In this document: one piece after another, positions 2,565 through 58,123 of the stretch
How positions within the stretch are numbered: position 1 is the stretch's first letter
Layout of the letters: each line of letters opens with the position of its first letter
Assembly: GCA_009776375.1 (NCBI GenBank)
Contig: WRNW01000001.1
Coordinates: 34,600-98,599 of the forward strand
Reading direction: 5' to 3'
Length of the DNA stretch: 64,000 bases
Origin: Candidatus Saccharimonadota bacterium
GTDB lineage: Bacteria > Patescibacteriota > Saccharimonadia > Saccharimonadales > Saccharimonadaceae
The notes under the pieces: generated by a model
The model's input: only the letters and a program-made list of their open reading frames with translations
What the model was told of the DNA's origin: nothing
The model's database searches: none
Made by a program: the position numbers and the translations under genes

Positions 2565-3715
2565 TGTTCGATTCCCCTGGCGAAGTTTAGTAGTTTTGTG
2601 TCAGATTTCATCGGCCCGATGATCTGTATGCCGTTTGGTAGGATCATGGCGGGCAACCCAGCCAGGCTAGCCATCATGCTCGCCTCGGTCGAATCAGCCG
2701 AACAAACCAAGCAATCATATCGATCAAATAATTTGTCCAGTTCACTAATCAACATCGTTCGCGCCTTCATAGCCTGCATATAATATTTCTCGAAATTCTC
2801 GGACGATAGCACATAAAAGCCAGTCAAAATATATTGTTTCATTTCGTCGCTAAAAATCTCGGCCCGTGAACGGCTATAGATCTCAGACAGAGTTTTCGCA
2901 TCTGCACGTTTACCATACCTGATCCCGTCGTATTGCATAAAGTTCGAGCTAACTTCCGCTGGCATTAGCGTCCAATAGATCGACTGAGCATATTTCGCCA
3001 TATTGAGCGAAATCTCACTAACTGAACATTTCACCTCTGTTAATTTTTTCCTTAATTGATTCGCGGTTTTTCCTTCACCGCCCACAAATTCTCTAATCAC
3101 ACCAATTTTAGATGTTGTGTTTTTTACAACATTGTCAAAATTAAAATCTTCTTTATTAAGCAAAGTACTGTCACGATCATCCGGGCCAGCCATAATTTGA
3201 CAAGCCGATTCGATGTCGGCGATCGAACTCGCGATCACGCCAATCGTGTCCATACTACTGGTCATAGTTGCTACGCCGTAGCGGCTAATCATACCATAGG
3301 TCGGTTTATAACCAATCACACCCCCGCTCGCCGCTGATTGTAGAACCGAACCGCCAGTATCAACGCCTAGTGCAAATTTTGTTGCACCATGCACGACTGA
3401 ATCAACTAACGTGTCATCGCGAGCGTAGCGTGGCGATCCAGGTTTATTGCTGGATTGCTTCGTCGTTTCACTCCTCGCAATGACCGTGTGGTGTGCCCCC
3501 CGTAATGACTTAATGTTTGCGTCAACCAAAACCGCGCCATCGGCCAGCAGCCGATCGACCGCCGTCGCCTGCACCGGCGAAACGAAATTTTCCATAATTT
3601 TGCCCGTCGCGGCGCTCTCGCGGCCTAGAGCTAAAATACGCCCGTCAATCGCGAACGATACACCGATCAGATGATTGACGTTTTTATTTTTAGCGTTTTT
3701 TGGAGGTTGGCTCAT
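2561..3715 (-). CDS. gatA: amidase-signature protein, divergent and short GatA-like subunit
   Basis: GVDTGGSVLQSAA, GYKPTYGMISRYG, SSMDTIGV and C-terminal LAGLPAMILP match the GatA/amidase fold, and it lies between gatC and gatB. Only 384 aa, with a degenerate signature (see findings). Confidence 0.6.
   Translation of the reverse strand: MSQPPKNAKNKNVNHLIGVSFAIDGRILALGRESAATGKIMENFVSPVQATAVDRLLADGAVLVDANIKSLRGAHHTVIARSETTKQSSNKPGSPRYARDDTLVDSVVHGATKFALGVDTGGSVLQSAASGGVIGYKPTYGMISRYGVATMTSSMDTIGVIASSIADIESACQIMAGPDDRDSTLLNKEDFNFDNVVKNTTSKIGVIREFVGGEGKTANQLRKKLTEVKCSVSEISLNMAKYAQSIYWTLMPAEVSSNFMQYDGIRYGKRADAKTLSEIYSRSRAEIFSDEMKQYILTGFYVLSSENFEKYYMQAMKARTMLISELDKLFDRYDCLVCSADSTEASMMASLAGLPAMILPNGIQIIGPMKSDTKLLNFARGIEQ
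3413..3484 (-). repeat. palindromic in-frame element, family A (72 bp) in gatA-like gene
   Basis: GTCATCGCGAG...GATCCAGG...CTGGATTGC...CTCGCAATGAC; translated VIARSETTKQSSNKPGSPRYARDD. Confidence 0.8.
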
Positions 3716-4379
3716 CTATAATCCCCTTTACAATATCGATCATTTCTTGTCTGGCAGTATCCTTGAAATTATGGTCAGAACGGATTTCAATTAGTTTCAC
3801 ATCGTCCGCAAGGCCGCTATAATCTTGCTCGTCGACGACTTCGTCCTCGGTAGCCACGAGAATCGTTAGCTTGGTCAACTTTGCCAGTTCATTACACAGC
3901 GGTGTGAGATCTGGTATTTTATTGTAACTCCGCCAATAATCTGCGCCGATGATTGTGGTGGTACCGTCGCGACGCGGGATGGTCGCCATATCGTCTGTGA
4001 CGACCGCGCCCGGCCGATGTTCGAGATAGTAGCGAACTTTGTCACCAGAGTTCAATATCTGGAGCGGCGGTGCCAAGAGGATCGTCCGGCGCGCGTCGAG
4101 CTGGGCCATCGCCGCGATGGTGCCACCCTGGGAATGGGTGATAATGTCGATGATCGCGGTCGGGTTGTCCTGTTTGGCTTGATTAAAAATATCCGTCAAC
4201 ATTTTAGCCTGCTCGTCCAGCGGCGTAACGGTCACCGTCTTTTTCGCTTTGTCGATTTTGTTGTAATCAAAGATGATATGCTCAGCGGCCGGAAACTGCG
4301 CCGCGATCTCGGTGAACATTCCGCGATTGTCCGCTCTGACGCCGAAACCGTGCGAATAAATGATGATGTGGTTGCTCAT
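3690..4379 (-). CDS. alpha/beta hydrolase
   Basis: IIIYSHGFG and THSQGG (GxSxG-type elbow). Inserted between gatC and gatA. Confidence 0.6.
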   Translation of the reverse strand: MSNHIIIYSHGFGVRADNRGMFTEIAAQFPAAEHIIFDYNKIDKAKKTVTVTPLDEQAKMLTDIFNQAKQDNPTAIIDIITHSQGGTIAAMAQLDARRTILLAPPLQILNSGDKVRYYLEHRPGAVVTDDMATIPRRDGTTTIIGADYWRSYNKIPDLTPLCNELAKLTKLTILVATEDEVVDEQDYSGLADDVKLIEIRSDHNFKDTARQEMIDIVKGIIDEPTSKKR

Positions 4380-4681
4380 TATAATACCTTGGGTACCTTT
4401 ACTTGATTATTCTTAGAATCAGGAGCCAGCGCGAGTAATTTCTCACGCGGCAACTGCGGTTCGATGATATCGTTGCGCCAGACGCTAGTTAGACCTGTCA
4501 CCTGGCAAGTTGGTTCGACACCACTAGTATCAAGGTCCTGTAGTTTGTCAATCGATCCGATGATTTTGTTGAGATCGCCAACTAGCAATGTCAATTCTTC
4601 GTCACTGACGGTAATACTGGCCAGACTCGCTAAATGTTCCACGGTCGTTTGGTCAACCCCAAGAGGATTTCTCGCATTCAT
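4379..4681 (-). CDS. gatC: Asp/Glu-tRNA amidotransferase subunit C
   Basis: LASLASITVSDEELTLLVGDLNKIIGSIDKLQDLDTSGVEP, a typical GatC pattern; about 100 aa. Confidence 0.8.
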   Translation of the reverse strand: MNARNPLGVDQTTVEHLASLASITVSDEELTLLVGDLNKIIGSIDKLQDLDTSGVEPTCQVTGLTSVWRNDIIEPQLPREKLLALAPDSKNNQVKVPKVL

Positions 4682-4688
4682 AACAATG

Positions 4689-55932: not shown

Positions 55933-55947
55933 TAATTTTGTTGCGCC

Positions 55948-55982
55948 AAAAAACACCCCGAATTTCAGGGGTGTTTTATTTT
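55948..55982. terminator. bidirectional terminator between the RRM gene and ligA
   Basis: AAAAA, ACACCCC-GAATTTCA-GGGGTGT, TTTATTTT. Confidence 0.75.
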
Positions 55983-58123
55983 ATCAATTCCAAGAATTCT
56001 TGTTCGTCGATGATTTTTGTGCCGAATTTGGCGGCTGCCGCGCGTTTCGATGCACCGATTTTGCCGCCAGCCACGAGATAAGTTGTTGATTTACCAACAG
56101 CGTTTTGAAATGTCCCACCAAGTGTTCGGATTTTTTCGGCCGCGGCGTCGCGACTCATCGATTCTAGCGTTCCGGTGATCGCGAAACTTTGTCCGGCCAG
56201 TTTACCGGCAGATAAATCGACATGTTTTGGCTGGATACCAATTTGTTGTAATTTTAACAACAATCTTAAATTGTCCTCGTCGGATAGCCAAGCGATGATC
56301 GATTCGGCGACCACTATACCGATACCATCGATGCTTTCGAGATCAGCCATATCGGCGGCCATAAATGCCTCGAGAGATTTGAAATTATTCGCTAAATCGA
56401 TCGCTGTTTGCGCCCCAACGTGGCGAATGCCGAGCGCGGTAATTAGGCGACTGAGCGGCGGGGTTTTACTTTGACTAATAGCGTCGACCAGGTTTTTGGC
56501 GGAGATTTCGGCGAAACGATCGAGTTTCTTAATATCCGATTCTTTGAGCAGATAAAGGTCGGCCACGTCGCTCACTAGACCGGCGTCGACCAAAGCTATG
56601 ACGTTTTTTTCGCCTAAACCATCAATGTTGAGTGCCGGTCGGCTGGCGTAATATTGCACGGCGCGTTTGAGGATGAGGTCGCTAGTTTCGCCCCTGACGC
56701 GGTAAACCACTTCACCGTCAGGACGTTCGAATTCGAGTTCCGGATATTGCAGGGTCAGAACCTGCAAGAAGTTGAAAGGTTTTGTGTTAGTCTGGCGTAG
56801 TTCGGTTAGAACGCGCTGGATTTGGGGGATGATATCGCCGGCCTTGAAGACGACAACTGTGTCGCCGATCCGCACGTCGAGCCGGGCGATTTCGTCGGCG
56901 TTATGTAGGGACGCGTGTTTGACGGTCGTCCCGGCGACTTGTACTGGATCGAAAACCGCTACCGGTGTCGCCGCACCAGTTCGACCGATTGAAATGACGA
57001 TGTCACGGACGATGGTGGTGGCTTCTTCGGCCGGATATTTGAACGCCACCGCGCCGCGTGGACTTTTGCCGACGACGCCGAGTTTGGCGAACTCCGCGCG
57101 ATCGTTGACCTTGACCACCACACCGTCGGTGTTGAACGGCAAGTTTTCGCGATGCTTATCTAGATCAGTAATATATTTCAAAACTTGGTCGATGGTTCTA
57201 AAAGTTTTCGCCTGTCCGCTAGTAGCGATGCCGCAAGCCATCAATGTTTCGTAAACTTGCTTGTTGGTTGTCATCGTTTCGTGCAGCAGATCATAGCCCA
57301 GGAAACGTAGCGGTCGCGCAGCTACTACCTGCGGATCGAGTTGGCGAATCGTGCCCGCCGCCAAGTTGCGCGGATTAGCGAACTCCGGTTCACCGTTTCG
57401 GCGTCGTTGTTCGTTCAATTTCGCAAAGTCTCCTTTAAAAATGACGATTTCGCCACGGATTTCGATGCGACCAGCGGCAAAATCTGCGAGTTTTTCTGTT
57501 GCAGTAACGCCGCCTTCCGCCCCACTACCTTCGCGCACCACTCCCTCGCGCCCGTCGTTACGGGGCTCAGTCGTTGCCGCTGGCGTCGTAACGCCAGAGC
57601 CTGCGCGAGAGGTAGATGCGGCTCCGGCGGCAGATGTGCGCAATCTCAATGGTATGTTGTTAATCGTCCGCACATTCGCCGTCACATCCTCGCCCACCCG
57701 ACTGTCGCCGCGTGTCACCGCTCGCTTGAAAACACCGTCCTCGTAAATCAGCGCACAGGCCAGACCGTCCATTTTAATATCGCACATGAATTCGAAATTA
57801 GCATCCGGTAGAAGCTTTTGGATGCGTTCCAACCAAGCCCGAATTTCTGCTTCATTAAAGACGTCGCTCAGGCTAATCATCGGTGTTTGGTGCGTGACTT
57901 TTTTAAAGCCATCTAGCGCCACGCCGGCAACTTTCTGGGTTGGGCTATCGGGCGTGATTAATTCGGGATATTGCTCTTCAAGCTGACTTAGCTCATGCTT
58001 CAACGAATCGGCCGCCGCTTCGCTCATTGTCGATTCGTCCAAAACGTGATAATGATAGCGATAATCATCAATTAACGCCCGCAGTTTCGCGGCGCGCTCA
58101 CTAGCCTCAATAAGATTTTTCAC
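55976..58123 (-). CDS. ligA: NAD-dependent DNA ligase
   Basis: CDIKMDG adenylation site, OB, Zn, HhH and BRCT order; GTG start; ~50-aa GC-rich insert after NNIPLRL. Confidence 0.95.
57488..57640 (-). repeat. GC-rich imperfect palindrome forming a ~50-aa insert in ligA
   Basis: Arms CTACCTTCGCGCA (57526-57538) and its complement in CTGCGCGAGAGGTAG (57601-57615). Encodes [44 protein letters not shown], which other LigA proteins lack between IPLRL and the EVRGE block. Confidence 0.5.

Follow-up and report, generated by a model that had tools for sequence, protein, structure and literature searches.

In-frame palindromic repeats resembling CGTC-tagged REPs in protein genes of a Saccharibacteria contig

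The DNA analysed here is a window of 64,000 nt (G+C 47.6%) from a 163,841-bp contig of Candidatus Saccharibacteria, a lineage of the candidate phyla radiation (CPR); the source follows from matches of 100% for PheT and LeuS. The window is 94% coding, and short palindromic sequences lie inside uninterrupted open reading frames (ORFs) for an amidase that resembles GatA, the N-terminal subunit of transketolase, Rpe, PheT, LeuS and LigA (Table 1). A first-pass annotation had described nine such inserts, bounded by terminal inverted repeats (TIRs), and had compared them with the Rickettsia palindromic elements (RPEs). Eight of the nine were recovered with the termini and the exact positions proposed, and the ninth, in ligA, has neither GTCAT termini nor a second copy. 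A solo monomer within rpe at 14247-14274 had been missed, and a further copy is present in gatB, just beyond the window. In the window and flank, by which we mean the ~82 kb of contig that comprise the 64-kb window and ~17.8 kb of flanking sequence, we count 10 GTCAT-type elements plus the ligA palindrome, and four of the elements reside in a single tRNA synthetase gene, pheT.

Table 1. Palindromic elements in the window and the adjoining flank. Positions are those of the window; fold z, z-score of folding as DNA; pLDDT, predicted local distance difference test of the AlphaFold2 model.
Element	Position	Host gene	Details
Family A dimer, 72 bp	3413-3484	gatA-like amidase ORF, 2561-3715 minus	Encodes VIARSETTKQSSNKPGSPRYARDD; replaces amidase-signature region, net length unchanged
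Family A heterodimer, 81 bp, long + short arm	12895-12975	Transketolase N-terminal ORF, 12496-13365 minus	Encodes VIASAAKQSSATENDSGLLRLSTPRND; fold z = -6.3
Solo REP monomer of the CGTC type	14247-14274 (+)	Inside rpe	GTC ATTCTGAA cttgt TTCAGAAT CTC; 8-bp stem, 5-nt loop
Family B dimer	14583-14657	rpe, 14091-14825 minus	TIR to TIR 14583-14656 = 74 bp, 75 bp including the C of CGTC; encodes RHSERNEESPQNSTDPTKSPISQND
Family A heterodimer, 81 bp	27059-27139	pheT, 25979-28798 minus, residues 554-580	pLDDT <50 at 559-580
Family B dimer	27647-27715	pheT, residues 362-384	68 bp TIR to TIR, 69 bp including the T of TGTC; fold z = -4.3; pLDDT <50 at 370-375
Composite family A, 135 bp	27950-28084	pheT, residues 239-283	Third-type arm + long arm with nested hairpin CAGCACC..GGTGCTG; pLDDT <50 at 247-280
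Family A, 102 bp	28487-28588	pheT, residues 71-104	Third-type + long arm; pLDDT <50 at 74-107
Composite, 123 bp	46243-46365	leuS, 44545-47064 minus, residues 234-274	15-bp-stem hairpin monomer (GTC ATCCCTCACCACTTT..AAAGTGGTGAGGGAT CCAG) + short family A arm with nested module; fold z = -7.2
Unique palindromic in-frame insert, ~46 codons	57494-57631	ligA, 55976-58123 minus	No GTCAT termini, no second copy
Dimer, 75 bp	0.6 kb outside window	gatB	In frame, GTC as codon

The termini of these elements are far more frequent in the window than expected. GTCATTGCGAG, with up to one mismatch allowed, matches 12 times (1.6 expected), GTCATYCTGAG matches five times (1.35 expected), and a scan for GTCAT...ATGAC pairs with complementary 11-mers returned nine matches as against 0.46 in Markov controls. 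Folded as single-stranded DNA, the eight elements form long hairpins; z lies between -1.6 and -7.2, and five of these elements fold better than any of 200 shuffles. Each arm of an element is a monomer that consists of a YGTC tag, a stem started by AT, an internal region and a tail. Family A arms have the stem AT(T/C)GC..GC(A/G)AT and the tail CCAG, and family B arms have the stem AT(T/C)CT..AG(A/G)AT with CTC or CTA in place of the CCA tail; the arm stem is 5 bp long, and the internal region falls into two length classes of 9 and 15 nt. The variable stem position covaries in hundreds of copies from other genomes (T:A 397 and C:G 72 versus T:G 5 and C:A 15). A pyrimidine precedes GTCAT at 13 of the 15 ends in the window and at 95% of 806 ends in other genomes (C 63%, T 32%). 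A complete element joins two inverted monomers, tags outward, across a spacer of ~10-50 nt to a total of ~70-135 bp. Every one in the window is a heterodimer of differing arm types (long, short or third type), and both orientations relative to the host gene occur. The pheT 27950 and leuS 46243 elements have one nested hairpin module in common, located at an identical point of an arm, which indicates that composites are copied as units. The short arms, for example at 12951-12975, contain GCGAAGC, the sequence of the very stable d(GCGAAGC) DNA mini-hairpin, and this may be relevant to how the single strand folds.

The solo monomer in rpe reads EILKQVQND on the gene strand, and peptides of its type (ILKQVQDD) are also found in LeuS of two relatives (P0125 and P0168). 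At the gathering threshold, Rfam recognised two tRNAs only in the window, and it gave no match to the pheT inserts at E values up to 1. A separate sequence, L240, has four matches to the core of the third-type arm (GCGAGCGAGCGAAGCAAGCGTGGCGG) at 10262-10656, spaced by 123 bp, and these may be a tandem array or encode a repeat protein.

That most of these sequences were inserted is evident from the empty sites that were found in distant proteins of the Protein Data Bank (PDB) as well as in related proteins. Staphylococcus PheT, the numbering of which is unbroken at these points, has nothing that corresponds to PheT residues 71-110, 243-279, 358-386 and 553-580; LeuS residues 244-276 are missing from Thermus LeuRS, and LigA residues 163-217 from E. 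coli LigA. The transketolase subunit shows a 19-residue gap in the alignment with PDB 6yak, and Rpe has ~24 extra residues relative to its PDB orthologue (query 46-79 against chain 70-79). Closer to the source, many Saccharibacteria PheT relatives of 50-59% identity are empty at each site, and 102 of 120 LeuS relatives lack the insert and have 29-34 residues in that segment. The proposal that the inserts add peptides absent from orthologues thus holds for PheT, LeuS, LigA, transketolase and Rpe, and fails for the gatA-like protein, in which no net length was gained. Modelled with AlphaFold2, PheT reaches a mean pLDDT of 84.3; the flanking domains exceed 90, and values below 50 are nearly confined to the four inserts. 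By this model, the PheT inserts are predicted to be low-confidence, disordered surface loops that are compatible with the fold. Both in this model and in the LeuS alignment, the inserts are placed at domain junctions. The insertion sites are permissive loops that have been hit repeatedly.

At the LeuS site, another kind of insertion was observed in relatives. Many Saccharibacteria LeuRS carry a whole NUDIX or alpha/beta-hydrolase domain of 150-260 residues just before the editing domain, exactly where the palindrome lies in the window LeuS (~residue 234); examples are P0123, P0126, P0139, P0156, P0173, P0184 and others.

As the contig stems from a MEGAHIT k141 metagenome assembly, repeats shorter than the k-mer might have been misthreaded into the genes. 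We consider such an assembly artefact extremely unlikely: to the left and to the right of every insert the host protein aligns with a single orthologue, identical PheT and LeuS sequences exist in several sources, independent assemblies from other samples have elements at the same sites, and misthreading would not yield solely stop-free inserts whose length is a multiple of three.

The comparison with relatives further indicates that the copies belong to a mobile family. Both arms of the gatA-like element equal those of an element in pheT of relative P0009, save for a 10-nt spacer gap and a 1-nt indel, and pheT of P0002 contains an exact match to the right arm (36 nt) of the gatB element. Between the pheT genes compared, nucleotide identity is 62-64%, and 42-45% at third codon positions; near-identical arms between genes so diverged point to copies of a mobile family rather than to local evolution of loops. 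The motif recurs both on the same contig outside the window, in gatB, and in relatives. P0002, whose PheT is 62% identical by BLASTP, has intact elements at all four pheT sites, and other relatives hold different types of repeat (CHPE..., ...WIPDQVRDD, SLRGAS) in the same PheT loops. The opposing idea would be that the inserts are lineage-specific expansions that arose in place and are palindromic by chance or through local duplication and inversion. The ligA insert, which is unique and has no family termini, would suit such an origin, as would the fact that the sites are variable loops in many relatives; with GTCAT-type arms that are near-identical across unrelated genes, genomes and phyla, however, we regard it as very improbable for the elements at large.

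The family reaches far beyond the Saccharibacteria. The exact pattern GTCATTGCGAG-N40-70-CTCGCAATGAC was found at no fewer than 120 loci in bacterial genomes, with one genome taken per species. Hosts among the matches listed include Bradyrhizobium, sphingomonads, Pedobacter, Mucilaginibacter, Chloroflexi, Planctomycetota, cyanobacteria and Patescibacteria. Separate scans gave comparably long lists of matches, to the exact pattern in viral contigs of IMG/VR and to a heterodimer variant in metagenomes. In three samples of listed matches, element length modulo 3 is uniform (45/44/35, 44/32/52 and 48/49/46). ORFs that extend 60 codons or more to either side span only 17-25% of the listed copies, as compared with ~70% of random sites; the family is normally intergenic. 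The in-frame minority elsewhere comprises copies in GuaA, UvrA, RecG, LepA (two copies), xanthine dehydrogenase, an ATPase resembling the coupling protein of type IV secretion systems and two phage portal proteins. A search of a protein database with a 51-residue concatenate of insert peptides gave no candidates.

Some of these matches deserve mention in their own right. The UvrA gene with an in-frame family A element (L041 1761-4490 minus) has a leader that reads ...CHSEQSEES..FRMT, a reading that marks a family-B-like element at this gene's 5' end. Exact family A elements occur on IMG/VR viral contigs, sometimes several per 10 kb (L282, L295 and L309 have three copies each), and the in-frame copies in phage portal genes (PF04860 and PF05133) are at L330 5727-5810 and L353 941-1015. 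Phages may ferry the element between hosts.

Against this background, the reading frame is the informative feature of the window copies. As the first-pass annotation had stated, the inserts do not break the frame: the host ORFs are uninterrupted, and every element is free of stops in the host frame. All seven copies with family A termini, six in the window and the one in gatB, span a multiple of three, with GTC...AAT GAC read as codons. For the family B copies, the spans originally given were 74 and 68 bp, which are not multiples of three; on the gene strand, the Y of YGTC brings them to 75 and 69 bp. The claim that no copy is intergenic is also upheld for the window, where nhmmer with an arm profile detected neither an intergenic nor any further copy, and the ~17.8 kb of flanking contig likewise contained no intergenic copy, the gatB copy being the sole addition. 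Location in coding sequence is unsurprising on its own, because the window is 94% coding: under random insertion, nine of nine copies would lie in coding sequence with p ~0.58. What is notable is how the family behaves elsewhere by comparison, and, in addition, the filter on frame. Few random insertions would survive such a filter, and many purged insertions are therefore implied; that the window copies are all multiples of three and stop-free points to selective filtering.

Two stronger claims on the frame were rejected. An exclusive VIA...RND frame is contradicted by a broad sample, in which the ORF-spanned copies of a length divisible by three use the VIA frame in 18 cases and the SLRG...LAMT frame in 10 (n=28), so that the seven of seven in the VIA...RND frame here are suggestive, not decisive. 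A pre-adaptation of the element for translation was likewise dismissed, as stop-free fractions exceed those of shuffles only modestly (0.5 versus 0.35). In the broad sample, the VIA frame is open, whichever way the element is oriented, in 61% of the elements with a length divisible by three.

The frame also bears on whether the inserts reach the protein at all. Strong hairpins within coding sequence resemble bypass or processing signals, and the inserts could in principle be absent from the mature protein through removal from the mRNA, ribosome bypass (known from T4 gene 60 and from the 'byps' of yeast mitochondria) or intein-like splicing. Removal would free both frame and stops, yet seven of seven copies with family A termini are multiples of three and all elements are stop-free, whereas lengths elsewhere are uniform modulo 3. 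Rfam gave no ribozyme or intron match, and inserts of 23-45 residues are too short for inteins. We therefore rate a removal or bypass of the inserts as highly unlikely.

The closest known relatives are the CGTC-tagged repetitive extragenic palindromic (REP) sequences, a superfamily that includes Rickettsia RPE-4 and RPE-6 as well as Neisseria dRS3 (Di Nocera, De Gregorio and Rocco, 2013, BMC Genomics 14:522, PMC3733652). CGTC REPs are defined by the tag CGTC (variants TGTC and CCTC), an AT-started stem of 8-9 bp, a loop of 4-5 nt and a CCA tail; inverted dimers, often heterodimers with spacers of 20-100 bp, are frequent, odd loops were noted in some families, and no dedicated transposase was reported (PMC3733652). 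The window elements share the YGTC tag, the A-T pairs at stem positions 1 and 2 and the organisation as inverted heterodimers, and the CCA tail is present in family A arms (..GCAAT CCAG). Stems of 8-9 bp with loops of 4-5 nt are found only in the solo monomer of rpe and in elements of relatives. Most CGTC REPs are intergenic (PMC3733652), whereas every window copy is intragenic. The ATTGCGAG-type sequence and the VIARS-type peptides are absent from the supplementary tables of that study, which also does not list Saccharibacteria or CPR among the host phyla. In view of the deviant arms and of the missing ATTGCGAG type in the published tables, we treat the elements as a new subfamily of the CGTC kind.

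The RPEs had been put forward as the only well-known precedent for in-frame palindromes, and this does not hold. In-frame GTAG and CGTC REPs, a minority of their families, have been tabulated in many species, including R. conorii genes, GlyRS-beta and IleRS of E. litoralis (Erythrobacter), dnaE2 and uvr genes (PMC3733652). As far as they are described in two later papers (PMC10969869, PMC3733652), RPEs are in-frame palindromes in unrelated housekeeping genes of a reduced-genome, host-dependent bacterium, the added peptides are thought to be compatible with the fold, and RPE-1 is ~150 bp long and specific to Rickettsia (Ogata et al., 2000, Science 290:347; Ogata et al., 2002, Genome Res 12:808). 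The likeness to the window is clear: palindromes lie in frame in protein genes and are absent from orthologues, and the PheT inserts are predicted to be surface loops that the fold can accommodate; the gatA-like copy does not fit. In-frame dimers of R. conorii encode SFLRKQES...LDSRFRGND (PMC3733652), and their end ...RGND corresponds to the same AAT GAC reading as in the window elements. The R. conorii CGTC-1 and CGTC-4 peptides (SFLRKQES..., VIPAKAGI) are otherwise unlike VIARS...PRND in this comparison, which was made by published peptides. The window elements probably belong to another sequence family, in another phylum, and their family extends over many phyla and viral contigs.

Two further systems are comparable in part. 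In the GTAG REPs, the replicating unit, termed REPIN, comprises two inverted REP hairpins and a spacer, and is associated with the RAYT transposases (Bertels and Rainey, 2011, PMC3116915). The window elements are likewise non-autonomous, dispersed and composed of paired inverted hairpins. They differ in the tag, which is YGTC and not GTAG, in the lack of an ORF resembling RAYT or a Y1 transposase between paired copies (363 loci) or in the ~82 kb of contig, and in their cross-phylum distribution, as REPINs were reported to be vertically inherited and lineage-specific. Transposable elements of the miniature inverted-repeat type (MITEs) derived from insertion sequences (IS) also reside in genes, for example Coxiella QMITE1 and intragenic ERIC, with some in-frame ORF fusions, and a 2024 review regards RPEs as the extreme case of such fusions and mentions none in CPR (PMC10969869). 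Similar to these, the window elements are short, bounded by TIRs, non-autonomous and fused in frame; unlike these, they showed no target-site duplication, and no parent IS with matching termini was found. Our literature search found no paper that links Saccharibacteria, Patescibacteria or CPR to MITEs, REPs or RPEs, and a search for the 11-mer returned unrelated primer matches only.

We consider it highly probable that the elements are non-autonomous hairpin repeats of the CGTC-tagged REP type that a selective filter keeps in frame within genes. The earlier description of RPE-like selfish palindromes in frame in a CPR genome is thus borne out by the Saccharibacteria origin of the contig, the empty sites, the recurrence and the PheT loops. 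Copies would be made and spread in trans by an enzyme; if REP/RAYT and IS200/IS605 are a guide, its substrate is probably hairpins of single-stranded DNA. To our knowledge, CGTC-type repeats have not been linked to any mobilising enzyme. Surviving copies would be intergenic in most bacteria; in this small genome with 94% coding sequence, the survivors would be intragenic. A copy would escape purifying selection only if its GTC...GAC span is a multiple of three, contains no stops and sits in a permissive surface loop or at a domain junction, and translation of such copies would yield loops that are hydrophilic and disordered, with the pattern VIA[RS]..KQS...[PA]R[ND]D.

Several observations weigh against this interpretation. 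The arms have 5-bp stems and interiors of 9 or 15 nt, as opposed to CGTC REPs, in which stems measure 8-9 bp and loops 4-5 nt. No transposase or candidate partner was detected among the called genes of the ~82 kb, and at 363 loci the sequence between close paired copies contained only ordinary or phage structural ORFs and no REPtron-like partner. Target-site duplication is not above chance, with flank repeats of 1-3 nt in 14, 11 and 4 of 403 copies, respectively. Mobility is thus inferred from distribution only. P0001 and its closest relative, P0002, have elements at the same four pheT sites that differ in subtype, length and apparent orientation, which a simple scheme of a single insertion followed by decay does not account for. 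The shared sites may go back to early insertions that underwent homogenisation or inversion afterwards, or they may represent independent hits.

The two remaining difficulties concern individual genes. In the gatA-like gene, the element displaces a catalytic motif and does not lie in a neutral loop. The protein aligns without gaps to Aquifex GatA, and the place of the GGSSGGS (cis-Ser) amidase signature is taken by the element together with a decayed arm-like stretch, AAGTCATTACGGGGGGCAC, upstream of it (residues ~66-116). This element replaced sequence and added no loop, as judged from the alignment. A D is aligned at the position of the catalytic Lys (residues ~20-30), ~50 N-terminal residues are absent, and the protein reaches 247.7 bits against TIGR00132 (cut-off 481.1); its sequence suggests that it may be an inactive glutaminase subunit. 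A 229-residue ORF upstream of the gene was considered as a split-off GatA N-terminus and was ruled out, as it encodes an alpha/beta hydrolase. The label "essential genes" that had been given to all hosts is accordingly doubtful for this gene, which is without the catalytic Lys and the cis-Ser motif. The ligA insert, in turn, is strongly palindromic (RNA fold -77.7 kcal/mol) and absent from the aligned relatives (the best 30 among 150 hits, with 54-58% identity for the closest three), and BLAST found no second copy in the sequences examined. Its assignment to the family was rejected for want of GTCAT termini and of another copy; it is a real, unique palindromic insertion, and its membership in the family is unproven.

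The occupation of the same four pheT loops in two genomes, with intact palindromes in pheT genes that are only 64% identical, could also mean that the hairpins serve the host, for instance by pausing translation at domain boundaries, by stabilising mRNA or as sites of recombination and repair, and have become domesticated regulatory modules. The arms are indeed far more conserved than the host genes, and the inserts lie at domain junctions. Yet most relatives are empty at each site, the family elsewhere is mainly intergenic and unrestricted in length, disorder is predicted for the encoded peptides, a catalytic motif is overwritten by one copy, and no Rfam family matches. A regulatory role of this kind therefore seems improbable to us, and we return to the REP-type repeats that are filtered for frame.

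These repeats may have a wider history, which we put forward as a speculative and rather unlikely extension. The ATTGCGAG-type hairpin would be a horizontal replicator, possibly phage-borne, that is near-identical from Proteobacteria to CPR and has become a resident of coding sequence in Saccharibacteria, where the same protein loops stay occupied across long divergence while individual copies are replaced, inverted or homogenised against other copies. The symmetric ends GTC...GAC and the 6-nt difference between the arm classes would suit translation, and the mobilising enzyme would be very widespread. If this were true, the element would drive the evolution of loops and domain junctions in genomes of ultra-small size.

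As regards the gene neighbourhood, small hydrolase genes are interspersed among the strings of translation-related genes. An alpha/beta hydrolase gene with a weak cinnamoyl esterase match (3690-4379 minus) separates gatC from the gatA-like gene, the start of pheT is overlapped by a NUDIX gene (28795-29277), and a Ser_hydrolase gene (L365 10611-11165) is found directly upstream of gatB. The gatA-like gene adjoins an ORF with a CdiA_C toxin domain (PF18451; 1747-2148 minus, corresponding to L365 9451-9852), which contains a single ATCATTGCGAG 11-mer at 2027-2037 without a partner arm.

In summary, the elements represent a known kind of element in a new lineage, the Saccharibacteria of the CPR, where they reach a high local density. 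The finding extends selfish palindromes of the Rickettsia type in essential genes to the CPR, a second lineage of reduced-genome, host-dependent bacteria, and supports the idea that small populations and scarce intergenic space push such elements into coding sequence. Unexplained insertions of 20-45 residues in CPR proteins may often be derived from REPs, and such insertions affect annotation, alignments, phylogenomic markers and structure prediction. With one REP family distributed across many phyla and viral contigs, including in-frame copies in portal genes, the mobilising enzyme is now approachable by phylogenetic profiling with many dated insertions.

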